Counted from the first letter of the stretch, positions 31,997 to 45,725 are shown. The stretch: 45,821 bases of DNA from Zeimonas sp. (GCA_035303885.1 DATGRE010000191.1:1-45821), one strand, 5' to 3'. The notes: generated by a model from the sequence alone, not told the origin. Program-made: numbers and translations.

Positions 31997-32968
31997 ATGA
32001 AGCTCCACCAACTGCGCGACTTCGTCGCCGTGTCGCACGCTGGCGGAATTCGAGCGGCCGCGCGTGAGCTCGGACTGACTCAGCCATCACTCACCAAAAG
32101 CATCCGTCAGCTGGAGACATCGCTCGGCGTTCCGCTGTTCGAGCGCACCGGGCGCGGTCTGCATCGCACGGAATTCGGCGATGCACTGTTCGTTCGTGCG
32201 AGCGCCGTCCTGGCCGACCTGCAGCGCGCAACGGATGAGATCCGGCAACTCCGTGGCATCTGGCAGGGACGGGTCACGGTATCGATGAGCGGCACTAGCC
32301 TGCTCAATCTCCTACCGGGAGCACTCGAGGTGTTTCGACGTCGCCATCCCGATGTGCGCGTGCGCATCATCGAACGGCCACTCGACCAGGCACTCGAAGA
32401 GCTCCGCGGCGGCGTCCTCGACTTCGCCGTTCTTCCCGAGCCCCCAGCCACCATCCGGGACGAGTTTCGTTTCGATCCCCTACTGACCGACCGCTACGCC
32501 GTGGTGGGGCGAGCGGCGCACCCCTTGAGCAGCGCCACGTCGATCGTGGAGTTGCTCGACACGGAATGGGTCGTTACCCGCCAAGGTGGCGCAAGTGCCG
32601 CCGAGTTCGAGCGCTATTTCGCCGCGCTGCGGCTGACGGCTCCGAGTGTCTCGATCCAATGCGAAACCGTCCTCGGCGTTCTGTCCCTCCTCGCGCATAC
32701 CGATCTGCTAGCCTTGCTGCCGTCGCGCTGGCTGCATACCAGGATCACGCGCAATGTCTCGGCCGAGATCCATGTCGCCGAGCACGTCCAGACTACGCCT
32801 ATCGGCATCATTCAGCGCCGCTCGGCGCCCTTGTCCCCCGCCGCAGAAGCCTTCGCGGCCGCGCTCGTAGTGGAGTCCCGAGAAGTCGAGCGTGCATCCC
32901 CCGTCACGACTCCTCCTCGGCGAACGCCTCGTCGCGCTTCTTCGCCACCGCGGGCAGGAAGACGATGA
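31997..32968 (+). CDS. LysR-family transcriptional regulator
   Basis: MKLHQLRDF...AARELGLTQPSLTKSIRQLETSLGVPLFER. Confidence 0.96.
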   Translation: MKLHQLRDFVAVSHAGGIRAAARELGLTQPSLTKSIRQLETSLGVPLFERTGRGLHRTEFGDALFVRASAVLADLQRATDEIRQLRGIWQGRVTVSMSGTSLLNLLPGALEVFRRRHPDVRVRIIERPLDQALEELRGGVLDFAVLPEPPATIRDEFRFDPLLTDRYAVVGRAAHPLSSATSIVELLDTEWVVTRQGGASAAEFERYFAALRLTAPSVSIQCETVLGVLSLLAHTDLLALLPSRWLHTRITRNVSAEIHVAEHVQTTPIGIIQRRSAPLSPAAEAFAAALVVESREVERASPVTTPPRRTPRRASSPPRAGRR

Positions 32969-34415
32969 CGAGCAGCACGACCGCGATCGCCAGCAGCGTG
33001 GCCGACAGCGGGCGCGTGACGAACACCGACCAGTCGCCGCGCGAGATCGTCATCGCGCGGCGCAGGTACTCCTCCATCAGGCTGCCGAGCACCAGCCCGA
33101 GCAGCATCGGCGCCGGCTCGCAGTCGAGCTTGCGGAACAGGTAGCCGAGGATCGCGAACGGGATCGTCACGTAGACGTCGAAGACGTTGTTGTTGATCGA
33201 GTACGCGCCGACGCAGCAGAACAGCAGGATCGCCGGATACAGGATCCGGTACGGGACGGTGAGCAGCTTGATCCAGATGCCGATCAGCGGCAGGTTCAGC
33301 ACCACCAGCATCGCGTTGCCGATCCACATCGAGGTGATCAGGCCCCAGAACAGGCTGGGGTTGCTCGTCATCACCTGCGGGCCGGGCTGGATGTTGTGAA
33401 TCATCATCCCGGCGACCATCAGCGCCATCACCGCGTTGGTGGGAATGCCCAGCGTGAGCATCGGGATGAACGAGGTCTGCGCGCCCGCGTTGTTCGCCGC
33501 CTCCGGGCCGGCCACGCCTTCGATCGCGCCCTTGCCGAAGCGCTCGGGCGTGCGCGAGATCTTCTTCTCGATCGCGTAGGAGGTGAACGACGACAGCACC
33601 GCGCCGCCGCCGGGCAGGATCCCGAGGAACGAGCCGAGCGCCGTGCCGCGCACGATCGGCGCGAGCGACGCCTTGAGTTCGTCGCGGCTGGGCAGCAGAC
33701 GGCCGACCCGGCGGGTGAAGACCTCGCGATCCTCGCGATGCTCCAGGTTGGCGATGATCTCGCCGAAGCCGAACAGGCCCATCGCGACGGCGGCGAAGGA
33801 GACGCCGTCGGTCAACTCGGGGATCCCGAAGGAGAAGCGCGCGACCCCCGAGTTCACGTCGGTTCCGATCATGCCCACCAGCAGGCCGAGCACGACCATC
33901 GCCAGCGCCTTGACGATCGATCCGTGCGCGAGGACGACCGCGGCGATCAGGCCGAGCACCATCAGCGAGAAGTACTCGGCGGGCCCGAACTTGAAAGCGA
34001 TCTCGGCCAGCGGCGGGGCGAAGCCGGCGATGAGCAGCGTCGCGACGGTCCCCGCGAAGAACGAGCCGATCGCGGCGATCGACAGCGCCGGCCCCGGTCG
34101 CCCTTTGCGCGCCATCTGGTAGCCGTCGAGCGTGGTCACCACCGACGAGGTCTCGCCGGGCAGGTTCACCAGGATCGCCGTCGTCGATCCCCCGTACTGC
34201 GCGCCGTAGTAGATGCCGGCAAGCATGATGAGCGCCGTGGTCGGATCGCTCATCTGGTAGGTGATCGGCAGCAGCATCGCGATCGTCGCCAGCGGGCCGA
34301 GCCCGGGCAGCACGCCGATCAGCGTGCCGAGCAGCACGCCGACGAAGCACCAGAGGACGTTCTCGAGAGTGAGCGCGGTCGCGAAGCCCAGCGCCAGGTG
34401 CGAAAGCAGTTCCAT
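32904..34415 (-). CDS. tctA: Tripartite tricarboxylate transporter large permease TctA
   Basis: [38 protein letters not shown]. Confidence 0.96.
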
Positions 34416-34428
34416 CAGCGGATCAGGA

Positions 34429-34890
34429 TCAAGGCGAGAACAACGTCGGCCAGACGGGGAACTGCAGCTCGAGCCCCTTCACGAAGACCAGCCAGGACAG
34501 CACGAGCAGCACAACGATCTCGAGCAGCGTCTCCTTCCATCGGAACTCGTGGCTGGCGATGGCCGAGAGGCCAATCAACACGGCGACCGAAACGACCATG
34601 CCCAGGCGCGGCAGCAGCAGCGCGAACAGCGCAACCGACCCGAGGATCACGATCAGCGGGCGCCAGCCGATGCGCTCGACGCCCGTCTCGGGGTTGGTGC
34701 GCGCCGTGGACATCCAGATCGTCGCCACGCCGAGCAGCGCGAGGAGGACGCCGAGCATCATCGGGAAGAAGCCCGGCCCCATGCGGGCCGGCGTGCCGAG
34801 CTGGTACGCGGAGGAGAAGACGGCGAAGGCGCTCCCGAGGACGAGAAACAGGACTCCCGACCAGAAATCGCGATGGTTGCGGATGCGCAT
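34429..34890 (-). CDS. tctB: Tripartite tricarboxylate transporter small permease TctB
   Basis: GTPARMGPGFFP, four TM segments, adjacent to tctA. Confidence 0.93.
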   Translation of the reverse strand: MRIRNHRDFWSGVLFLVLGSAFAVFSSAYQLGTPARMGPGFFPMMLGVLLALLGVATIWMSTARTNPETGVERIGWRPLIVILGSVALFALLLPRLGMVVSVAVLIGLSAIASHEFRWKETLLEIVVLLVLSWLVFVKGLELQFPVWPTLFSP

Positions 34891-35045: not shown

Positions 35046-36266
35046 CTACCGCATCCGCCACAGCAAGGCGATTCCCAGCCCGGCGAACGCGGCGGCCACG
35101 CCGAACGTCGCCGCATAGCTTTGCAGCTGCGAGTAGATGGCCGCGAACAGCGACGGCCCGATCAGCACCCCGCCGAACGTGAAGAACAGCGCGCCGCCGG
35201 TCGCCGTGCTCGCCTCGCCCGCCGGCGCGAGCCGCGCCACCTCCGCCAGGAACACGCCGTTCCACCCGATCGCCGTCACCCCCATCGACACGAACACGGC
35301 GGCCGTGGCGAACGCGCTCCAGCGCTCGTCGACCTGCGTGGCCGCGAGCGTCGCGAGCAGCATCAACGCTCCGAGCACGAGCAGCGTCGTTCGACTTGCC
35401 CGCAACCGGTCGGCGATCCACCCCCAGGCGATGCGCCCGACGGCGCCGGAGAACTGCACTGCCGACAGCAGCACGCCCGCCTCGACCAGCGTGTAGCGCG
35501 CCTCCTGCACGAGAAACGTCACCGCGAAGGTCATCAGGCACAGCTGCACGCCGGCGAAGCACAGCGCCATCAGCGACAGATGGCGAAGGCCCCGGTGCGA
35601 CCACACCAGGACGATTCCGCTCAGCAGGCCCGCAGGCGAACCCGAAGCCTGCCGGGCATCCCGCCGCACGCGTCCGCTGCGGTCGCGCTCGGCCGCGCAC
35701 CGATCGTCGTCCCAGAGCGAGCGCACCGGCTGCAGCAGCGCGAGCATCGCGAGCGCGCAGACGAGGACGACGAGCAGCGCCGCGCGCCAGCCATAGGCGT
35801 GCGCGACCGGCGGCGCAACGAGCGCCGCGGCCATGCCGCCGAGCGGAACGCCCGTCTGCTTCAGCGAGAAGATCAGGTTGCGGCTCGACGCCGGGGTGAA
35901 GCGCGCCAGCAGATGCGCGCCCGCCGGATTCGACGACCCGTAGCCGAAGCCCAGCAGCATCGACGCGACGGCGAGCGCAGCCAGGTGCGGCACCGTCGCG
36001 AGCAGCATCGCGGCGGCGACGAGCGCGAGCGCGACTTGCGTCGTGCGGCAAGCACCCAGCCGCGCGACGACGTTGCCGCCCACCGCCGCGCTCGCCATCG
36101 CACCCGCGTAGACGATGCTCACCTGGTAGCCGATCGTCGACGCGTCGACCGCGAGCACCTGCGCGAGCTCGGGCGCGAGCACCGGCAGCGTCAGCGCGGC
36201 CATCGAGACGATCGTCTGCGCGACGAGCGTCGCGCCGACGACGATCGGCACGGGCGGAGTCTGCAT
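35046..36266 (-). CDS. MFS transporter
   Basis: 406 aa hydrophobic protein; SLKQTGVPLGG, GRIAWGWIADR, IGWNGV. Confidence 0.92.
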   Translation of the reverse strand: MQTPPVPIVVGATLVAQTIVSMAALTLPVLAPELAQVLAVDASTIGYQVSIVYAGAMASAAVGGNVVARLGACRTTQVALALVAAAMLLATVPHLAALAVASMLLGFGYGSSNPAGAHLLARFTPASSRNLIFSLKQTGVPLGGMAAALVAPPVAHAYGWRAALLVVLVCALAMLALLQPVRSLWDDDRCAAERDRSGRVRRDARQASGSPAGLLSGIVLVWSHRGLRHLSLMALCFAGVQLCLMTFAVTFLVQEARYTLVEAGVLLSAVQFSGAVGRIAWGWIADRLRASRTTLLVLGALMLLATLAATQVDERWSAFATAAVFVSMGVTAIGWNGVFLAEVARLAPAGEASTATGGALFFTFGGVLIGPSLFAAIYSQLQSYAATFGVAAAFAGLGIALLWRMR

Positions 36267-36271
36267 CGCCT

Positions 36272-37591
36272 TCAGCGCACGTTGCCGACGAGCATCAACG
36301 CCAGTTGCGGGAAGACTGCGACCAGCGCGAGTACCGCCAACATGATCAGCACGTAAGGCACGGCGCCCCGGATGATGCGCTCGAGCGGAACGTCGCGCAC
36401 GACGCCCTGCACGACGAACAGGTTCAGGCCGACCGGCGGCGTGATCAGCGCCATCTCCATGTTGATCGTCAGGATGATGCCAAACCAGATCAGGTCCCAG
36501 CCGAAGACCGAGACGATCGGGATCAGGATCGGCGCCGTGATCACGATGATCGACAGCGTCTCCATGAAGCAGCCGAGGAAGACCAGCAGCAGGTTGATCG
36601 CGATGAAGATCAGCCACGGCGCAACGTCGAGCTCGGCCACCGTGCGCGAGATGACCGGCGCGACCTGCGTCGTCGTCATCGCGTAGCCGAAGACCATCGC
36701 GCCGGCGATGATCATCAGCACCATCACGCTGCCGCGCGCCGCATCGTGCAGGATGACGAGCATCTTGCGAAGCGTGAGCTCGCGGTAGAGGACGCCCGAG
36801 AGCAGCAGGCTCGCCAACGTGCCGAGCGCGGCCGCTTCGGTGGGCGTGGCAAGCCCCTGGTAGATCGAGCCGAGGATGATCCAGATCAGCACCGCCATCG
36901 GCACCAGGTGCCGCAGCGCGGCGAGGCGCTCGCGCACGGTGGGCGCCGCCGCCATGGCCGCATGCCCGGCAACGGTGGCCGCACGGTGTGCGCGCAGCGC
37001 CGCGCGCACCTGGTACGCCATGAACGCGGCGGTCATGATCAACCCGGGGAGGATCCCGGCGATGAAGAGCTTGCCGATCGACTGCTCCGCGACGATGCCG
37101 TAGACGATCATCGGGATGCTCGGCGGAATCAGGATGCCGAGCGTGCCGCCGGCGGCCACCGCCCCGGTGGCGTCGCTGTCGCGATAGCCGAAGCGGCGCA
37201 TCTCGTCGACCGAGAAGCGGCCGATCGCTCCCGCGGTCGCGACGCTCGAGCCCGAGACCGCGGCCATCACCGCGCATGCGAGCGTCGTCGCGACCATCAG
37301 TCCGCCGGGCACGCCGTGCAGCAACGTCGCGAGCGACGCATACAGGCGCGACCCCATCCCCGACGCCGAGATGATCGCGCCCATCAGGATGAACAGCGGA
37401 ACCGCCGTCAGCGTGAAGCTCGTGATCGAGCCCCACAGCGTCGGCGCGATGAGGCCGAGCGCGTCGATGCCGCCACCCACCAGGAGCAGCGTGCCGATCG
37501 CGACACCGAAGAGGCTGAATGCAACGGGCACGCCGATCGCGAGGCACGCGATCAGCGCGGCGAACATCGCCAGACCGAGCCAGATCTCCAT
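36272..37591 (-). CDS. TRAP transporter large permease (DctM family)
   Basis: AVPLFILMG, SGSSVAT, GTLGILIPPSI, ATPTEAA, ITPPVGLNLFV. Confidence 0.96.
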   Translation of the reverse strand: MEIWLGLAMFAALIACLAIGVPVAFSLFGVAIGTLLLVGGGIDALGLIAPTLWGSITSFTLTAVPLFILMGAIISASGMGSRLYASLATLLHGVPGGLMVATTLACAVMAAVSGSSVATAGAIGRFSVDEMRRFGYRDSDATGAVAAGGTLGILIPPSIPMIVYGIVAEQSIGKLFIAGILPGLIMTAAFMAYQVRAALRAHRAATVAGHAAMAAAPTVRERLAALRHLVPMAVLIWIILGSIYQGLATPTEAAALGTLASLLLSGVLYRELTLRKMLVILHDAARGSVMVLMIIAGAMVFGYAMTTTQVAPVISRTVAELDVAPWLIFIAINLLLVFLGCFMETLSIIVITAPILIPIVSVFGWDLIWFGIILTINMEMALITPPVGLNLFVVQGVVRDVPLERIIRGAVPYVLIMLAVLALVAVFPQLALMLVGNVR

Positions 37592-37609: not shown

Positions 37610-38137
37610 TCAGGCGCTGTCGCGCCTGCGGTTCACCATCTCCGCCAGATGCACGACGAGCAGCCAGAGCATGCCCGCGGCGAAGAACGAATAGGGAATC
37701 CACAGCGCGACCTGGAAGAGCCCCCAGGACGTCTCGCCGCTGTCGTAGGCGTCCCACCAGAACTGCGCACTGAGCCACGCGAGCAGCCCGACCACGACGA
37801 GCACGACGACGTCGGCGAGCCAGGCCAGCACGCGGCGAACGCCGGGGGAGACGCGCGTGACGACGAGATCGACGCCGACGTGCGCGCCTTCGGCCAGCGC
37901 ATAGGCCGCGCCGCCGAAGGCGATGAGGCCCATCAGGTATTCCGAGACGTCGTTGACCCAGCCGGTCGTCGACGCGAAGAAGGTGCGGGCGACGACCTCG
38001 TAGGTGACGAGCAGCGCGATCGCGAATGCGGCGACGCCGACCAGCAGCCCGGAGAATCGCGTGACCGCCGCGATCCACGCGAAGCCCGCCGGGGGGCGGC
38101 GCGCCGGCGCCGCCCCGTTGCCTTCGCGCGCGCTCAC
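37610..38137 (-). CDS. TRAP transporter small permease (DctQ family)
   Basis: YEVVART, WVNDVSEY, GAHVGVD; four TM segments. Confidence 0.93.
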   Translation of the reverse strand: MSAREGNGAAPARRPPAGFAWIAAVTRFSGLLVGVAAFAIALLVTYEVVARTFFASTTGWVNDVSEYLMGLIAFGGAAYALAEGAHVGVDLVVTRVSPGVRRVLAWLADVVVLVVVGLLAWLSAQFWWDAYDSGETSWGLFQVALWIPYSFFAAGMLWLLVVHLAEMVNRRRDSA

Positions 38138-39150
38138 CGGCCCGCGTCGACGCCGGCGTTCTTCAGCAGCTCCTCACCGCCGGGAACGTCGGCCTTGAAC
38201 TTCTCGAAGCTGTACTTGCGAAACCAGTCCTGCCACTTCTTCCACGACGCTTCGGTCATCTTCTCGACCTGGACGCCGTTCTTCGCGAACAGCCCGGCGA
38301 CGCGCCTGTCCTCGTTCTTCGCCCCTTCCAGCGCCGCCTGCTCGAGGCTCTCGCCGACCTCGACGAGGATCTTCTGCTGCTCGGGCGTCAGCTTGTTCCA
38401 CGTCTTCATGCTGATCGCGATCGGCTCGATCGTGAAGTAGACGCTGTAGTCCTCGGGCGAGTTGTAGAACTTCGCCACCTCGTACATGCGATACGCGCCG
38501 AAGGACCCCGACGACGTCCACATTCCGTCGAGCAGCCCGAGCTGCATCGCGTTGTAGTTCTCGGACGACGGCATCGAGACGGTGGTCGCGCCCGCCTGCT
38601 GCAACGCGTACTCCATGAACTTGCCGGCCGCGCGCATCTTCAATCCCGAGACGTCCTGCGGCTCGTGGATCGGCTTGCCCGTCGAGGCGACGCCGCCCGA
38701 GATCTGGATCCACGACAGCGTCTTGAAGCCGTACTCCTGCGCCTTCCGTTCGAGCTGCTTCCACGCCTCGGACTTGCGGAAGGCGAAGACGTCGTCGTGG
38801 CTGCTCCAGAGACCGGGCAGCAGCACCAGGTTCATCTGCGGGATCGCACCGGCGGCGTAGATGTACGGATAGATCGCGAGATCGACCGTGCCGTTGCGCA
38901 GCGCCGTATGTGTCGCGTTCGCCTTCACGAGCGACTGGGCCGGAAAGATCGAGATCTTGATCTCTCCGTTCGTGCGCTTCTCGACCTCCTGCGCGAACTT
39001 GATGCCGGTGGCGATGACGTAGTCGGACTCGTCCTGCGGCCACTGGTGCGCCATCTTCAGGTTCAGCGTCTGCGCGGCGGCGGCGCCACCGAGCGTGAGG
39101 GCCGCACCCGCAACCAGCGCGGTCCCGAACTTCGCGAACGTGGTTCTCAT
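38134..39150 (-). CDS. TRAP solute-binding protein (DctP family)
   Basis: Signal peptide, FAQEVEKRTNGEIKI, GLKMR (conserved carboxylate-binding Arg), YNAMQLGLLDG; GGAGG RBS. Confidence 0.95.
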   Translation of the reverse strand: MRTTFAKFGTALVAGAALTLGGAAAAQTLNLKMAHQWPQDESDYVIATGIKFAQEVEKRTNGEIKISIFPAQSLVKANATHTALRNGTVDLAIYPYIYAAGAIPQMNLVLLPGLWSSHDDVFAFRKSEAWKQLERKAQEYGFKTLSWIQISGGVASTGKPIHEPQDVSGLKMRAAGKFMEYALQQAGATTVSMPSSENYNAMQLGLLDGMWTSSGSFGAYRMYEVAKFYNSPEDYSVYFTIEPIAISMKTWNKLTPEQQKILVEVGESLEQAALEGAKNEDRRVAGLFAKNGVQVEKMTEASWKKWQDWFRKYSFEKFKADVPGGEELLKNAGVDAGR

Positions 39151-39178: not shown

Positions 39179-40081
39179 TCAGTTCCGGCGATCGGTGCCT
39201 CGCGACATCGTTGCGAGAATTTCTTCGTACAGCGCCGCCGGCTCGTCGTCGAAGCGCTCCTCGGGCCATTGCGCGAGCGTCGCCGCCAGCTTCCGGTACG
39301 CCAGCCGCTGCAACCGATAGCGGTTGAAGCGGCGCCGGCGTGCAGGCGCCGGGCGGCGTTCGAGGGCCTGGTGCAGCGCCTCGTCGATCCGCGCGTCGAG
39401 CTCGAGCAGGCCTTCGTCATCGTCCGCCTTCACGAGCACGATGTGCGGCACGGCGACGCCGCGACGCTGCGACAGCGTCGTCTTCAGCTCGAGCGCCGTC
39501 CGGCGGGCTCCGGCGAGATCGGCCTTGTTGATCACGATGAGGTCGGCGGTCTCGAGGATTCCGGCCTTCATCGCCTGGATCGAGTCGCCCAGGCCCGGCA
39601 TCAGCAGCAGCACCTCGACGTCGACGAGCTCGCGCACGCCGAACTCGGCCTGGCCCACGCCCACCGTCTCGACGACGATCTCGGCGAAGCCGAACGAATC
39701 GAGCGTCGAAAGGACCTCCGGAAGGTTGTCGCCGAGCCCGTCGCGCGTCTGGCCGCTCGGCATCGAACGCACGTACACGCGTGGATCCTCGGCGAGCGCC
39801 TCCATGCGGATGCGGTCGCCGAGCAGCGAGCCGGCGCTGTCCGGGCTCGTCGGGTCGATGGCGACGATCGCCAGCGGCGAGGCCTTCTCCACCCGCACGT
39901 GGGCGAGCCGTGCGATCAGCGAGCTCTTGCCGACGCCCGGCGCGCCGGTGATGCCGATGCGCGGCGCCGGTGGCCCGTCGTGGACCGGCTCGCGCAGCAG
40001 CTCGTCGACGTCCATTCGCGCGACGCGCGTGAGCGCGCGGCTCACGGCCCGCCGGTCGAAGGGCGAGGCCGACGACGTCAC
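39179..40081 (-). CDS. meaB: MeaB/ArgK G-protein chaperone for the B12 mutase
   Basis: GITGAPGVGKSS, AIDPTSP..GSLLGDRIRM, ETVGVGQ, GDSIQAMKAGILE, NKAD. Confidence 0.95.
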   Translation of the reverse strand: MTSSASPFDRRAVSRALTRVARMDVDELLREPVHDGPPAPRIGITGAPGVGKSSLIARLAHVRVEKASPLAIVAIDPTSPDSAGSLLGDRIRMEALAEDPRVYVRSMPSGQTRDGLGDNLPEVLSTLDSFGFAEIVVETVGVGQAEFGVRELVDVEVLLLMPGLGDSIQAMKAGILETADLIVINKADLAGARRTALELKTTLSQRRGVAVPHIVLVKADDDEGLLELDARIDEALHQALERRPAPARRRRFNRYRLQRLAYRKLAATLAQWPEERFDDEPAALYEEILATMSRGTDRRN

Positions 40082-41202
40082 CCGGTCTTCCCCAGCAGGG
40101 CAGGCCCGTGCTCGCCGAGCAGCGGCGGCGCACGAAAATCGTCCTGCGCGTCGGAGAACTTCACCGGGTTGCCGACGACGCGAAGCATCTCTCCGTCGAG
40201 AGGAATCTCCGCAACCATCCCTCGCGCCGCCGTCTGCTCGCTCGCCAGCGCCGTCTCGAGCGTCTCGACACCGGCGGCGACGATGCCCAGCGGCGCGAGC
40301 CGCGCGACCCATCGCTCGGTCGTTTCGGTCGCGAGGACCTCGCCGATCGAGTGCAGGACGAGCTCGCGATTCTCGCGCCGCGCGACCATCGTCGCGTAGC
40401 GCTCGTCGTCGATCCACTCGGGGCGCCCGATCTCGCGGCAGAACGTGCGCCAGAAATCGTCGTGCGTGATGAACAACGTCAGCCAGCCGTCGGCCGTACG
40501 GAAGATCTGCGCCGGGACAATGTACGGATGCGCCGACGCCGGATAGCGCTCGGCACGCTCGCCGGCGTTCAACCATGCGCCCGCGAGATAGTTCAGTTGC
40601 GAGAGCATGACGTCGTACATCGCGATGTCGACCTGGCCGCCCTCGCCCTGCACGAGCTTCGCCAGCAAGCCCACCGCTCCCATGATGCCGGCGGAGTTGT
40701 CCACCGCCGAGTACCCGGTCTTCGTCGGCGGCCCGGACGGATCGCCGGTCAGCGCCATGACGCCGGTCAACGCCTGGATCACGTAGTCGTAGGCGGGCCG
40801 CTCGGCGAAGGGACTGTCCAGCCCGTAGCCGGTGAGCGCGACGCAGACGATCTTCGGATTGAACGCCTTGAGCCGCTCGTAGGTGAGGCCGAGCTTGCGG
40901 ATCGCCTTGGGACGCAGGTTCGTGACAAGGCCGTGCGCGTCGCGCACCAGCACGCCGAGCTGCGCGCGGCCTTCGTCCGATGCGAGGTCGAGCACGACGC
41001 TGCGCTTGCCGCGGTTCAGGCTCGCGAAATACGCGTTGTGAGGCCCGACCTTGTGCGGGCTGATGCTGCGCGCGATGTCCCCGGCCGGCGGCTCGACCTT
41101 GATCACGTCGGCACCCAGGTCGGCAAGCAGCATCCCGCAGTACGGGCCCATCAGCATGTGCCCGACCTCGATGATGCGCTTGCCGCGCAGCGGCAGAGTC
41201 AC
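40078..41202 (-). CDS. Class III (CaiB/BaiF) CoA-transferase
   Basis: LADLGADVIKVEPP.GD, NRGKRS, AYDYVIQA, catalytic Asp region SAVDNSAG, PPLLGEH. Confidence 0.95.
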   Translation of the reverse strand: MTLPLRGKRIIEVGHMLMGPYCGMLLADLGADVIKVEPPAGDIARSISPHKVGPHNAYFASLNRGKRSVVLDLASDEGRAQLGVLVRDAHGLVTNLRPKAIRKLGLTYERLKAFNPKIVCVALTGYGLDSPFAERPAYDYVIQALTGVMALTGDPSGPPTKTGYSAVDNSAGIMGAVGLLAKLVQGEGGQVDIAMYDVMLSQLNYLAGAWLNAGERAERYPASAHPYIVPAQIFRTADGWLTLFITHDDFWRTFCREIGRPEWIDDERYATMVARRENRELVLHSIGEVLATETTERWVARLAPLGIVAAGVETLETALASEQTAARGMVAEIPLDGEMLRVVGNPVKFSDAQDDFRAPPLLGEHGPALLGKTG

Positions 41203-41615
41203 GACAGCATCCTCGCGATCGTCGCGATGACGTCGGCGAGCGGGATCTCGCTCGTGAACACGCCGCGCACGCCCCGTTCGCGCAGTCTCTCCTGGTCGGG
41301 CGCGGGAATCGTGCCGCCCACGAACACCGGGATGTCGTCCGCCTGCAGCGAGCGCAACTGCTCGAGCGTATCGTCCACCAGCTCGTTGTGGCTGCCGGAG
41401 AGGATCGACAGCCCGACGGCGTCGACGTCCTCGTCGACGGCGACGCGCGCGATGTAGCCGGGCGTCTTGCGCAGCCCCGTGTAGATGACGTCGGCGCCGG
41501 CGTCGCGCAACGCGAGCGCGACGACCTTCGCGCCGACGTCGTGGCCGTCCAGGCCGGGCTTGGCGACGAGAATGCGCTTGCCGCGCAGCGGCGCCGTTTC
41601 GGTGGTTGGCTTCAT
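41199..41615 (-). CDS. Acyl-CoA mutase small (cobalamin-binding) subunit
   Basis: DxHxxG motif GLDGHDVGAK, GLSILSG, VFVGGTIP. Confidence 0.96.
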   Translation of the reverse strand: MKPTTETAPLRGKRILVAKPGLDGHDVGAKVVALALRDAGADVIYTGLRKTPGYIARVAVDEDVDAVGLSILSGSHNELVDDTLEQLRSLQADDIPVFVGGTIPAPDQERLRERGVRGVFTSEIPLADVIATIARMLS

Positions 41616-43237
41616 AGTCGCACCGGTTCCTCGAACTCGCCCCACTGCTTCTTCAGCCGCGCGACCATCTCGCCCACCGTGGCGTAGGCGTGGCAGCACT
41701 CGATCAGATAGGGCATCAGGTTCTCGTCGTCGACGGCGGCCGCCTGCTCGAGCCGGTCGAGCGCGCGCTCGACCTCGGCGGCATCGCGCCGGTCGCGGAT
41801 CGCATCGAATTTCTCGAGCACGCGCCGGCTCGCCTGCGGGTCGACGCTGAACACCTCCTCGGGCGCCGCCGTCTGGTCTTCGTGGCGAAAGCAGTTCAAC
41901 CCGACGACGGGCAGCTTGCCGCTGTCGATCTGCCGCTTGCGCTCGTGTGCGCGATGCGCGATGCGCAGCTGCAGCCAGCCGTCCTCGATCGCCTTCACCG
42001 CGCCGCCGTACGCCTCGACCTCGGCCATCAGCGATTCGATCCGCTTCTCCATCTCGTCGGTGAGGTGCTCGGTGAAGTAGCCGCCGCCCAGCGGATCGAC
42101 CGTGCGCGCGATTCCGCTCTCGTAGGCGACGATCTGCTGCGTGCGCAGCGCGAGCTCCGCGGAGAATTCGGTGGGAATCTGGAACGGCTCGTCGAGCGCG
42201 CAGGTGAAGATCGACTGCGCGCCGCTCAGCACGGCCGCCATCGTCTCGATCGCCACCCGCACGACGTTGTTGTACGGCTGCGGGGCGACCAGCGACGAGC
42301 CGCCGCAGACGACGCCGAAGCGGAACATCTGCGCCTTCGGATCGGTGACCCCGTAGCGCTCCTTCAGCAGCCGCGCCCAGATCCGGCGGCCGGCCCGGAA
42401 CTTCGCGACCTCCTCGAAGAGGTCCATGTGCACGTAGAAGAAGAACGACAGGCGCTTGGCGAAGCGGTCCGCGTCGCCGCCGCGTCGGATCAGCTCGTCG
42501 ACGTAGGCCAGCCCGTTGGCCAGCGTGTACGCCATCTCCTCGGCCGCCGTGCAGCCGGCATCGCGCATGTGGGCGCCGGCGATCGAGATCGTGTTGAAGC
42601 GCGGCGTCTCGCGGTTGCCGAACAGGATCGTGTCGGAGATCAGCCGCATCGAGGGGCGCACCGGAAAGATCCACGTTCCGCGCGCGACGTATTCCTTCAG
42701 GATGTCGTTCTGGATCGTCCCCGTGAGCTTCTCGCGCGGCACGCCGGTGCGGTCGGCGCACGCGATGTACATCGCGTAGAGGATCGCCGCGGTGCCGTTG
42801 ATCGTGAACGACGTCGAGATGCGCGACAGATCGATCCCGCGGAACAGGATCTCCATCTCGGAGAGATTCGACAGCGACACGCCGACCTTGCCGATCTCGG
42901 GACGCGCCATCGGGTCGGTGGGGTCGAGCCCGCACTGCGTCGGCAGGTCGAGCGCGACCGACAGCCCCGTCTGGCCACGCTCGAGCAGGAAGCGGTAGCG
43001 CTCGTTCGATTCCTCGGCGGTGCCGAAGCCCGAATACTGGCGCATCGTCCAGAGCCGGCCGCGGTAGCCGTCGGGAAAGATGCCGCGCGTGAACGGGAAC
43101 TCGCCCGGCCGGCCCGGATCCTGGAAGGGGAAGTTCTGCGGGTCGACGACGACCGGCACCTCGATGCCGGAGCGCACGGCGGTGCCGACGCTCGGCACGA
43201 CCGGTCGCGTTTCCGCTTCGGTGCTTCGATGGTTCAT
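41612..43237 (-). CDS. AdoCbl-dependent acyl-CoA mutase large (substrate-binding) subunit with atypical active site
   Basis: PGEFPFTRG, WTMRQYSGF, GLSVALDLPTQ, GTIQNDILKEYVAR, EEVAKFRAGRRIW, DPLGG. Confidence 0.96.
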   Translation of the reverse strand: MNHRSTEAETRPVVPSVGTAVRSGIEVPVVVDPQNFPFQDPGRPGEFPFTRGIFPDGYRGRLWTMRQYSGFGTAEESNERYRFLLERGQTGLSVALDLPTQCGLDPTDPMARPEIGKVGVSLSNLSEMEILFRGIDLSRISTSFTINGTAAILYAMYIACADRTGVPREKLTGTIQNDILKEYVARGTWIFPVRPSMRLISDTILFGNRETPRFNTISIAGAHMRDAGCTAAEEMAYTLANGLAYVDELIRRGGDADRFAKRLSFFFYVHMDLFEEVAKFRAGRRIWARLLKERYGVTDPKAQMFRFGVVCGGSSLVAPQPYNNVVRVAIETMAAVLSGAQSIFTCALDEPFQIPTEFSAELALRTQQIVAYESGIARTVDPLGGGYFTEHLTDEMEKRIESLMAEVEAYGGAVKAIEDGWLQLRIAHRAHERKRQIDSGKLPVVGLNCFRHEDQTAAPEEVFSVDPQASRRVLEKFDAIRDRRDAAEVERALDRLEQAAAVDDENLMPYLIECCHAYATVGEMVARLKKQWGEFEEPVRL

Positions 43238-44019
43238 GCTGATCCTCTGCTTCGCGACAGGAAGCGGTCGCTCGCCTGCCAGTGATCGGGGTGGATCCAG
43301 GTGGCGACGAAGGCCTCGCGCTCGCGCTGCTCGCGCTGCGCCCGCGTGTGCATGAGGCGATCACCCAGCGCGATCGCCTTGAACGCACGCAGCACCTGCG
43401 GCGCCTGCGCGCGCATCGGCGCGAGGAATCGCTCGACGCAGGCGTCGAGCGATTCGCCGTCGGCGGCGACGTCGTCGACCAGTCCGATCGCCTGCGCCTT
43501 CTCGGCCGGCATCGTCTCGGCGCCGACCAGGATCGAGAGCGCGCGCCGCCCGCCGACGAGCGCGACGAGATCCGCCCCGCCCCCGAAGCCCGTGCAGATG
43601 TTCAGGCGCCCCTGCACGAAGCCGATCGCCGCGTGCCGGGCCGCGACGCGGAAATCGCAGGCGACGGCGAGCTCGGCGCCTCCGCCCAGCGCGACGCCGT
43701 TCAGCGCGGCGACGACCGGCAGCGGGAACTCGCGCACCGCGCGCAGCGCCTCGTTCGCGTACGACCAGAGCCGCTCGGCGTCGTCGGTGCTGCGCAGCTT
43801 GTCGAACTCCTTCAGGTCACCGCCGGCAGCGAAGCTCTTCTCGCCCGCGCCGGTGACGACGGCCGCGCGCAGCCCGCGATCGTCGGCCGATTCGGTGAAC
43901 GCGCGGCGCAGCTCGCCGAGCACCTCGGTGCTCAGCGGGTTGCGCTGCGCCGGCCGGTCGATCGTCACGCGCAGGACGTCGTCGAGACGTTCGACCCTCA
44001 GGTACCGGTATTCGCTCAT
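43234..44019 (-). CDS. Crotonase-superfamily protein, probably an acyl-malonyl-CoA decarboxylase rather than a hydratase
   Basis: FAAGGDL, ALGGGAELAVACDFR; the second hydratase Glu is replaced by Gln (GFVQ). Confidence 0.88.
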   Translation of the reverse strand: MSEYRYLRVERLDDVLRVTIDRPAQRNPLSTEVLGELRRAFTESADDRGLRAAVVTGAGEKSFAAGGDLKEFDKLRSTDDAERLWSYANEALRAVREFPLPVVAALNGVALGGGAELAVACDFRVAARHAAIGFVQGRLNICTGFGGGADLVALVGGRRALSILVGAETMPAEKAQAIGLVDDVAADGESLDACVERFLAPMRAQAPQVLRAFKAIALGDRLMHTRAQREQREREAFVATWIHPDHWQASDRFLSRSRGSA

Positions 44020-44759
44020 TGCCGGAAGACCTCCTCGATTCGTCGGCGCGCACCGACGAGACGCGCCGCCAGTTCGTCGATGCGCTTCTCCATCCGGTGC
44101 GACGGACCGGCCACCGCGAGCCCGAAGACCTCGTCGCGGATCGACAGCGCGACGGCGAGCGCGGTGACGTCCTCGACGTTCTCGCCACGGGTCATGAACC
44201 AGCCGCGCTGCCGGCTTGCCTCGAGATCGGCGCGCAGCCGCTTCGCATCGACGATCGTGCGCCCGGTGACGGCGTCCAGCGGATGCGCACCGAGCCAGTC
44301 GGCGAGCGCGTCGTCGGACAGCGCGCCGAGCATCACCTTGCCGATCGAGCTCGAATGCAGCGGCTTGTATTCGCCGGGCTTCGCGGTGTAGCGCACGGTG
44401 TGCGGCCCTTCGACGACGTCGAGATAGAGGACCGCCTCGCCCTGCCGCTTGCCCAGGATCACGGTCTCGCGCGTCTCGTCGCGCAGACCCTGCAGCTGGG
44501 GCTCGATCCGCTCGAGGAACGGATCGTTGCGCACGACGCTCTGCGCGAGATCGAGCAGGCGCCGCGTCGGATAGAAGTCCTTGCGCCGGCTCACCGCGTA
44601 GAGGTAGCCGCGCCCGACGAGGGTCCGCACCAGACCGTGACAGCTGCTCACGGGAACGTTCATGCGCTGCGCGAGCTCGCTCAGCACGAGCGGCTTGCCA
44701 CTCGCCTCGAAGGCTTCGAACAGGTCGAGGGTGCGTTCGGCGGACGGTACAGGAGGCAT
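44016..44759 (-). CDS. IclR-family transcriptional regulator
   Basis: SAERTLDLFEAF HTH, LRDETRETVILG, PLHSSSIGKVML, LAVAGPSHR. Confidence 0.95.
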   Translation of the reverse strand: MPPVPSAERTLDLFEAFEASGKPLVLSELAQRMNVPVSSCHGLVRTLVGRGYLYAVSRRKDFYPTRRLLDLAQSVVRNDPFLERIEPQLQGLRDETRETVILGKRQGEAVLYLDVVEGPHTVRYTAKPGEYKPLHSSSIGKVMLGALSDDALADWLGAHPLDAVTGRTIVDAKRLRADLEASRQRGWFMTRGENVEDVTALAVALSIRDEVFGLAVAGPSHRMEKRIDELAARLVGARRRIEEVFRQ

Positions 44760-44989: not shown

Positions 44990-45598
44990 TCAGAGCCGGT
45001 CGGCGTACTCGCGAAGAAACGTCAGCGTGCGCCGCGGCGAGAACGACGGCAGCGCGCATCCGGGCGCGAGAATGAAGCCTTCGCGCCCGGCCTGCGCAAC
45101 CGCATCGTCGATCTGATGCGCGAGCTTCGGCAGCGACAGGTCGGGAAACGCGCTTTCGTCGATGCCGCCCATCAGGCAGGCATCGAAGCGCCGGCGTAAC
45201 TCGGCGAGCGTCGGGTTGTCGGGCGAACGGTCCGACACGCTGAGCGACTCGCAGACGGTCTCGATCGCGCGCAGCGGCTCCGCGCGATGGCGCCACAGGT
45301 TCTCCTGCTGGTCGCGGCCGATGTTGCGCACGATCGACTGGTACGGATCGAAGCCGGTCTCGAGCAACGGGAACTCGGGGCCCATCGCGACGCGCAGCCG
45401 GTGCAGGCAGTCGAGCTGCTGCGCGAACGCCGGATGATCGAGCGGCACGACCTCGAACGCCCGCAGCGACGACGCCTCCTCGACGTCGCGCAACCCTTCG
45501 GGCACCGGGTAGCGATAGTCGGACATGACCTTGGCGAGATCCCAGCGATAGGTCGTCAGGAAGCGTTCGTGCAGGCGCGCCGTCTCCTCGCCCGCCAC
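44990..45598 (-). pseudogene. Truncated, internally deleted uroporphyrinogen decarboxylase (URO-D/MtaA)-family gene
   Basis: WDLAKVM, ETGFDP, CLMGGID, FILAPGC are family-like motifs, but the ORF is only about 202 aa. The N-terminus and the central barrel segment appear to be missing. Confidence 0.6.
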
Positions 45599-45725
45599 TC
45601 CGACGACGCGTGCTACCTGCCATCTGGTAGGTGTCGCCGATCGCGGCGGTCAATACCCTTGCCCCGGCGAGAAGTCGTTGCGAACCCAGTTTTCCACGCC
45701 GAACCCAGGGGGAGGACCGTCCACC

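Follow-up and report, generated by a model that had tools for sequence, protein, structure and literature searches.

The 45,821-nucleotide stretch of Zeimonas sp. DNA analysed here (GCA_035303885.1 DATGRE010000191.1:1-45821; the window) contains a minus-strand gene, 41612..43237, that a sequence-only reading had described as an acyl-CoA mutase with a remodelled substrate pocket. The gene lies in a cassette with the order IclR, crotonase, mutase large subunit, mutase small subunit, CaiB and MeaB, followed by the TRAP genes dctPQM and an MFS gene. Start/stop overlaps of 4 bp join the six genes from IclR through MeaB, and promoter and terminator scans returned nothing exceeding shuffles. The cassette contains the following genes:

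44016..44759, minus strand: IclR-family regulator, heading the cassette (PF01614 and PF09339)
43234..44019, minus strand: crotonase-family protein, predicted acyl-malonyl-CoA decarboxylase (PF00378; E116 kept, second Glu replaced by Gln or His)
41612..43237, minus strand: acyl-CoA mutase large subunit, the substrate-binding TIM barrel (PF01642, TIGR00641, alignment to 1req_A)
41199..41615, minus strand: mutase small cobalamin-binding subunit, 138 aa, with DxHxxG (TIGR00640 above cut-off, PF02310)
40078..41202, minus strand: family III (CaiB/BaiF) CoA-transferase (PF02515, E=1.5e-111; Asp168 aligned to the Asp of solved relatives)
39179..40081, minus strand: MeaB-type GTPase chaperone of the mutase (PF03308, E=2.5e-60; TIGR00750 at 209 bits, below the cut-off of 240.75)
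38134..39150, minus strand: TRAP solute-binding protein DctP (closest solved relative Rfer_1840, 4MCO/4MEV)
37610..38137, minus strand: TRAP small permease DctQ (PF04290)
36272..37591, minus strand: TRAP large permease DctM (TIGR00786 above cut-off, PF06808)
35046..36266, minus strand: MFS transporter, at the cassette end (PF07690; start codon inferred)

The large-subunit open reading frame (ORF) encodes 541 aa from an ATG start with no internal stops. It matched PF01642 with E=6e-192 and TIGR00641 with 633 bits (cut-off 303.8); against NF006944 it scored 544 bits, below the cut-off of 876 bits, a shortfall due in part to the B12 domain being a separate protein. The TIM-barrel substrate domain of an adenosylcobalamin-dependent acyl-CoA mutase is accompanied by a DxHxxG cobalamin-binding partner and a MeaB chaperone, and by these family features 41612..43237 codes for the larger of two separately encoded chains of an adenosylcobalamin acyl-CoA mutase. 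The AlphaFold model of the subunit (mean pLDDT 76.5) gave a TM-score of 0.88 with both 4r3u_A and 1req_A.

The protein was aligned to 1req_A by phmmer/HMMER and numbered as methylmalonyl-CoA mutase (MCM), which is the 1req_A chain index plus 1 and is consistent with the PDB titles 'Y89F' and 'H244A'. The carboxylate-clamp and catalytic residues Y89, Q197, R207, H244 and E370 are kept (Y68, Q176, R186, H223 and E350 of the protein), and A222, D226, G308, V310, F344 and C346 stand at Y243, E247, H328, Q330, H364 and N366. The sequence-only reading had assigned the same eleven residues, the kept clamp included, and all were borne out by this formal alignment. It was also right to argue against ICM, HCM or PCM specificity. 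HCM, PCM-type and IcmF-type enzymes replace Y89/R207 (by I/Q, L/N and F/Q, respectively) but keep H328, Q330 and H364. 2-Hydroxyisobutyryl-CoA mutase (HCM; 4R3U) shares the split architecture and is the best PDB sequence match (E=2e-146); HCM, PCM and ICM were rejected as identities because their replacement of Y89 and R207 is not seen in this mutase.

The pocket signature is conserved rather than private, as a check on the GAH/RFGVVC/IFTC motifs across homologs showed. In 118 of 120 listed homologs (75-91% identity, a set biased toward close relatives; the two entries of the window's own protein were left out), A243, D247, G328, V330 and F364 (chain A222, D226, G308, V310 and F344) were invariant, and position 366 (chain 346) was C in 114 and A in 4. 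RFGVVCGGSSL was identical in all 118, as were five further changes absent from the sequence-only reading: S241A, T327F, S329V, T331C and S332G. Invariance alone is not rare, 190 of the 541 positions being invariant across the same homologs. The same signature was found at loci of 72-79% identity in Alpha-, Beta- and Gammaproteobacteria. A decayed or non-catalytic copy might be suspected because several residues that MCM usually retains are missing, but the invariance of the signature in 118 of 118 homologs excludes private decay, the DxHxxG small subunit and MeaB are retained, and intact copies occur across the three proteobacterial classes. We therefore rejected decay, which is extremely unlikely.

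A quick IQ-TREE phylogeny was built from 69 rows (the query, 28 locus matches and 40 hand-picked from 150 representatives), with SH-aLRT as the only support measure. A clade of 14 rows was recovered at SH-aLRT 100. Its sister group, joined with the same support of 100, consists of two rows, P0122 and a copy from a Streptomyces plasmid, and their pocket reads A/S243, G328, V330, F364 and A366. Clade and sister lie inside a 35-row group (SH-aLRT 97) with the IaaH-type and many unassigned remodelled mutases, and the MCM, ethylmalonyl-CoA mutase (ECM), HCM- and PCM-types lie outside it. Judged from these alignments and this tree, the clade is distinct from the MCM, ECM-, HCM-, PCM-, IcmF- and IaaH-type enzymes compared.

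The window's genome (G000) contains five PF01642 genes: this one and IaaH-, HCM- (I89/Q207), PCM- (L89/N207) and IcmF-type genes. No canonical MCM was found among these five matches (genome 93% complete). The other four large-subunit genes lie on contigs C5, C65, C299 and C350 (L040, L044, L042 and L043). In another carrier, G002, canonical MCM and ECM-type genes co-occur with this mutase. Because the MCM and ECM types in G002 and the IaaH, HCM, PCM and IcmF types in G000 co-occur with it, the mutase is not simply standing in for any of them.

MCM itself (1REQ, 2XIJ, 6OXC) resembles this mutase in fold (TM-score 0.87-0.88), carboxylate clamp and MeaB chaperone, but identity is ~41%, the six pocket positions differ and this mutase is split. 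Methylmalonyl-CoA mutase was rejected as its identity: the clamp is present, but the Y243/E247/H328/Q330/H364/N366 pocket and placement in the MCM clade are not. The ECM-type enzyme of G002 (L070/L077), encoded beside a TIGR01751 ccr gene, carries G328 and P366. It shares the Y89/R207 clamp, H328G and the loss of N366 with this mutase, but is 39% identical, has a fused B12 domain, keeps Y243, E247 and Q330, carries Q364 and P366, and falls on a separate branch. No ccr was found among the cassette core genes or flank representatives. Ethylmalonyl-CoA mutase was likewise rejected, as this mutase shares G328 only, has C366 rather than P366, is split and branches separately. Since ECM lies on a separate branch, G328 in the two was probably acquired convergently.

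In anaerobic indoleacetate degradation, IaaH is proposed to act as a (2-aminophenyl)succinyl-CoA mutase, IaaGH being a phenylsuccinyl-/benzylmalonyl-CoA mutase (PMC8360864). As a reference, 20 regions were taken from matches at 44-76% identity in the family of a further carrier, G001; 18 had one shared signature (IaaH-type), one was HCM-type and one belonged to this clade. The cluster around one of the 18 (L045) contains a thiolase, a CoA ligase, hydantoinase A/B, an acyl-CoA dehydrogenase, the mutase, a three-subunit molybdo-hydroxylase, a family III transferase and a binding protein, and would be an iaa-type cluster by the agreement of its gene content with the description in PMC8360864. The IaaH-type gene in G000 has hydantoinase, dehydrogenase and molybdo-hydroxylase neighbours. 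This mutase resembles IaaGH in being split, in the Y89/Q197/R207/H244/E370 clamp, in C366, in its family III transferase partner, in its broad tree branch and in a product that would then be decarboxylated. In contrast, the IaaH-type keeps Y243 and E247 and has F287N, H328I, Q330A/G and H364A, at 45% identity; decarboxylation after IaaGH is oxidative (by the acyl-CoA dehydrogenase IaaF), its cluster has hydantoinase and molybdo-hydroxylase, and G000 carries both mutases. Identity with IaaH was rejected on the 45% identity, the lack of the Y243/N287/I328/A364 signature and of an iaa cluster, the separate tree placement and a CaiB only 27% identical to the IaaL-type.

MatB and ActD, described in PMC5719088 as proposed hexylmalonyl-CoA to 2-pentylsuccinyl-CoA mutases, are likewise split enzymes proposed to act on alkyl-substituted malonyl/succinyl-CoA. 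They differ in length (481 aa) and in lying in actinomycete biosynthetic clusters with CCR, an epimerase and nonribosomal peptide synthetase genes, none of which is conserved here. Their gene context thus differs; the sequence comparison covered the MCM, ECM-, HCM-, PCM-, IcmF- and IaaH-types. A literature search, whose coverage omits most subscription papers so that absence from print is not established, returned no paper on this clade, and the accessible part of PMC9925536 contained no residue information.

The genes around the mutase are conserved with it. At 37 clade loci, homologs of at least 40% identity were found for the crotonase, the small subunit and CaiB in 36 each, for IclR in 34 and for MeaB in 33, and for DctP and DctM in 14 each, DctQ in 12 and the MFS transporter in 10; contig ends account for some of the misses, and among the IclR and transporter matches a few are non-adjacent paralogs. 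The transporters vary, other carriers having TTT, ABC or TAXI systems. In the plasmid collection, all six crotonase matches at E<1e-30 adjoin this mutase. A Pfam scan of the flanks (142 of 144 representative ORFs within 8.2 kb, two antisense ones dropped, from a crude ORF caller with one ORF per cluster) gave a single match, 1/142, to the acyl-CoA dehydrogenase family. With flanks this variable and one dehydrogenase match, the cassette is, on gene content, self-contained and has no conserved redox enzyme or dehydrogenase.

Distribution is patchy: at E<=1e-200 the mutase was found in 10 of 35 same-genus genomes and in 0 of 25 other relatives, and 3 of 301 genomes in the family of G001 carry a mutase of >70% identity. 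Seven plasmid or chromid records carry it at 60-80% identity, two of them flanked by insertion sequences (IS). One plasmid, from Marinobacter sp. M3C (L066:19281-19850), has a cobalamin adenosyltransferase gene directly downstream of MeaB in an IS-flanked cassette. Cultured carriers include Xanthobacter, Paraburkholderia caribensis MBA4, Sulfitobacter dubius DSM 109990, Diaphorobacter, Marinobacter and Ramlibacter. Judged by these records, the clade is widespread and mobile.

Crotonases that keep the oxyanion hole and the first hydratase Glu but lack the second include the decarboxylases ScpB, CarB and ECHDC1. The cassette crotonase has this one-Glu pattern: all 36 loci examined retain E116, the first Glu, and none of the 36 has the second, position 136 (Glu in aligned hydratases) being Q in 33 and H in 3. 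The top ESM Atlas cluster carries the automatic name ethylmalonyl-CoA decarboxylase but shares its score of 0.97 with two generic hydratase clusters, and a homolog search for a crotonase name returned generic names only. The protein is thus a probable acyl-malonyl-CoA decarboxylase, a prediction that we take as a lead, not as proof. For CaiB, D168 is present in all 35 loci covering the position. The best solved match of DctP is Rfer_1840 (E=3.6e-68, 39% identity; next match 6e-24), whose 4MCO structure reportedly has malonate bound.

The meaning of the pocket changes was considered through side-chain volumes. In a crude sum over seven positions from tabulated volumes, the net change relative to an MCM-type sequence was about -198 A3 for this mutase, -104 A3 for the ECM-type and -188 A3 for the IaaH-type. 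The larger cavity proposed in the sequence-only reading gains from a volume loss exceeding that of the ECM-type, but H364F refills part of it and adenosyl contacts may take some of the change. Y243, Q330 and N366 also contact the adenosyl group in MCM and IcmF structures, so that part of the change may lie outside the substrate cavity. The parallel drawn with ECM stands as far as the ECM-type sequence carries G328 and P366; a causal role of H328G and N366P in ECM was reportedly described by Erb in 2008. The suggestion of an aryl substituent lost ground, as the IaaH-type opens its pocket otherwise, shares only C366 and co-occurs in G000. The changes cluster at positions that presumably flank succinyl C2, the methyl carbon in methylmalonyl-CoA, so the substituent would lie there. 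With Y89 and R207 predicted to bind a free carboxylate, the substrates would form a pair of the succinyl/malonyl type.

Taken together with the directly observed family, residue changes, clade and operon anatomy, we infer that the cassette probably activates a C2-substituted succinate with CoA, rearranges it to a substituted malonyl-CoA and then decarboxylates it. A small dicarboxylate would be taken up by a TRAP, TTT or ABC transporter, and CaiB would place CoA on the carboxyl adjoining the substituted carbon. The mutase would hold the free carboxylate with Y89 and R207 and abstract H from C3, the thioester would migrate to give R-CH(R')-CH(COO-)-COSCoA, and the substituents would be accommodated in space from H328G/N366C (an ECM-like site) and Y243A (a second site). 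The one-glutamate crotonase would remove CO2, leaving an ordinary acyl-CoA that the host could process by beta-oxidation or through its branched-chain pathways. This direction of flux, from succinate through malonyl-CoA to acyl-CoA and CO2, is suggested because mutase and probable decarboxylase are both kept and a malonate needs no mutase. The scheme would parallel the logic of the E. coli scpA-argK-scpB-scpC operon, which comprises a mutase, a GTPase, a crotonase decarboxylase and a CoA-transferase; the transferase there is of family I and here of family III.

As to the substituent, the best single guess, a tentative one, is a 2,2-dialkylsuccinate, with 2,2-dimethylsuccinate passing through isopropylmalonyl-CoA to isovaleryl-CoA. 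A gem-disubstituted succinate would fit the two separate openings (328/366 and 243) and the lack of a dehydrogenase, since a quaternary carbon blocks alpha,beta-dehydrogenation, and isovaleryl-CoA feeds into a pathway common among hosts. A succinate with a single alkyl group bigger than methyl has a similar likelihood.

Several observations weigh against succinate breakdown by this route. The activity of the mutase and its partners is predicted, and the decarboxylase role draws on a residue pattern and on an automatic Atlas name that hydratase clusters equal in score; in PDB and NCBIfam the crotonase finds enoyl-CoA hydratases as its best matches, and the PDB matches listed (60 per search) are hydratase-type. 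No recurring pathway enzyme or substrate-naming neighbour was found by Pfam among the 142 flank representatives, the flanks being variable. Pocket loops of the mutase model have low confidence (residues 315-319 and 347-356, pLDDT <50). Engineered MCM Y243A is reportedly nearly inactive and undergoes suicide inactivation on bulkier substrates, so compensating changes would be needed. The relative of DctP, reportedly malonate-bound and at only 39% identity, suggests a small dicarboxylate and mildly favours import of malonate over succinate. If flux did run in the opposite direction, a substituted malonate would be imported and CoA-activated, the mutase would turn it into a substituted succinyl-CoA, and the crotonase would act later or only as an overflow decarboxylase. 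Rfer_1840 is by far the closest solved relative of DctP, which agrees with such a route. Mutases are reversible, and IaaGH is described as reversible in PMC8360864. However, malonyl-CoA with a decarboxylase present needs no mutase, yet both genes occur together in 36 of 37 loci; no conserved dehydrogenase would process the succinyl product, and this DctP type is found in only 14 of the 37 loci. We regard the opposite flux as unlikely.

Succinate breakdown also has to be weighed against two other views of the pocket. The changes at 243, 247, 330 and 366 might reshape adenosyl-radical and cobamide contacts around an ordinary small substrate, either succinyl-/methylmalonyl-CoA or (R)-/(S)-methylsuccinyl-/ethylmalonyl-CoA (methylsuccinate to butyryl-CoA). 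Three of these positions are the adenosyl contacts named above, G328 agrees with the ECM-type, the Atlas name of the crotonase is that of an ethylmalonyl-CoA decarboxylase, and G000 yielded no canonical MCM; set against this, canonical MCM and ECM-type genes co-occur in G002 and the volume lost is roughly double the ECM-type value, and we doubt that cofactor-side remodelling is the explanation. An aryl- or benzyl-succinyl-CoA mutase of another aromatic pathway, separately evolved from IaaH, is improbable: the architecture of the pocket differs from that of IaaH (F287 kept, Y243 lost; 45% identity), CaiB is distant from the IaaL-type, and hydantoinase, molybdo-hydroxylase, an IaaF-like dehydrogenase and ring-metabolism genes are not conserved in the cassette, even though the crude volume change is near that of the IaaH-type, C366 is common to both, both fall in the 35-row group and F364 could stack on a ring.

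Few acyl-CoA mutase specificities have been characterised, and they resist simple residue swaps, according to PMC2847961. The clade appears to be an unassigned, conserved and mobile mutase subfamily. Being widespread and mobile, and carried by cultured strains, it is open to direct assay. It would show natural tolerance of the loss of Tyr243, a change reportedly crippling in the engineered enzyme MCM, and might provide a catalyst for the stereospecific rearrangement of bulky dicarboxylates. If the gem-dialkyl case were true, this would be a natural 'Y243A' B12 mutase that removes a quaternary carbon via a tertiary product radical, and the cassette a mobile route of five genes, so far undescribed, for the end products formed when terpenoids, carotenoids and neo-acids are broken down. 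Such a route would handle compounds closed to beta-oxidation and might extend to ring-fused analogues like 1-(carboxymethyl)cyclohexane-1-carboxylate. These prospects are tempered by the clade being one of many untested remodelled subfamilies: among the best 150 representatives at 50% identity, only 84 retain H328 and 59 retain N366. Dozens of further remodelled, unassigned pocket signatures, many with Y89/R207, were seen in P0122-P0271.

Variants of the cassette were observed at individual loci. The sister clade, at 52-58% identity, includes P0122, P0172 and the mutase of a Streptomyces sp. N50 plasmid (L069:10001-11545), which is followed by a small subunit, an F420-dependent LLM oxidoreductase (TIGR03564) and CaiB; a one-Glu crotonase lies ~5 kb upstream on the other strand. 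One locus (L017:80-739) has no crotonase and carries, on the other strand beyond IclR, a gene of the glyoxalase/VOC family, which includes methylmalonyl-CoA epimerase. Another (L004:12036-13254) has the cassette without MeaB, and a MeaB of 37% identity lies beside other mutase genes ~9 kb upstream. On a Diaphorobacter sp. HDW4B plasmid (L065:1-2190), a PCM-type mutase with its own MeaB lies ~10 kb upstream of the cassette. In sequencing runs (four of 24 listed; three of compost RNA and one probably of DNA), contigs cover the operon in pieces, which cannot show transcription and was not taken as evidence.

In the window, a URO-D/MtaA-like fragment (44990-45649, minus strand; weak PF01208 match, E=9e-4) lies upstream of IclR and looks shortened relative to the URO-D-family gene of 365 aa that occupies this position in L002. 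Two other regions are unrelated to the cassette: TctA/TctB transporter genes at 32904-34890, and a flagellar/chemotaxis cluster at 1-26845 with fliD/S/F/G/H/L/M/N/O/P/Q-like, cheA/W/Y and methyl-accepting chemotaxis protein (MCP) genes, named from their translations.

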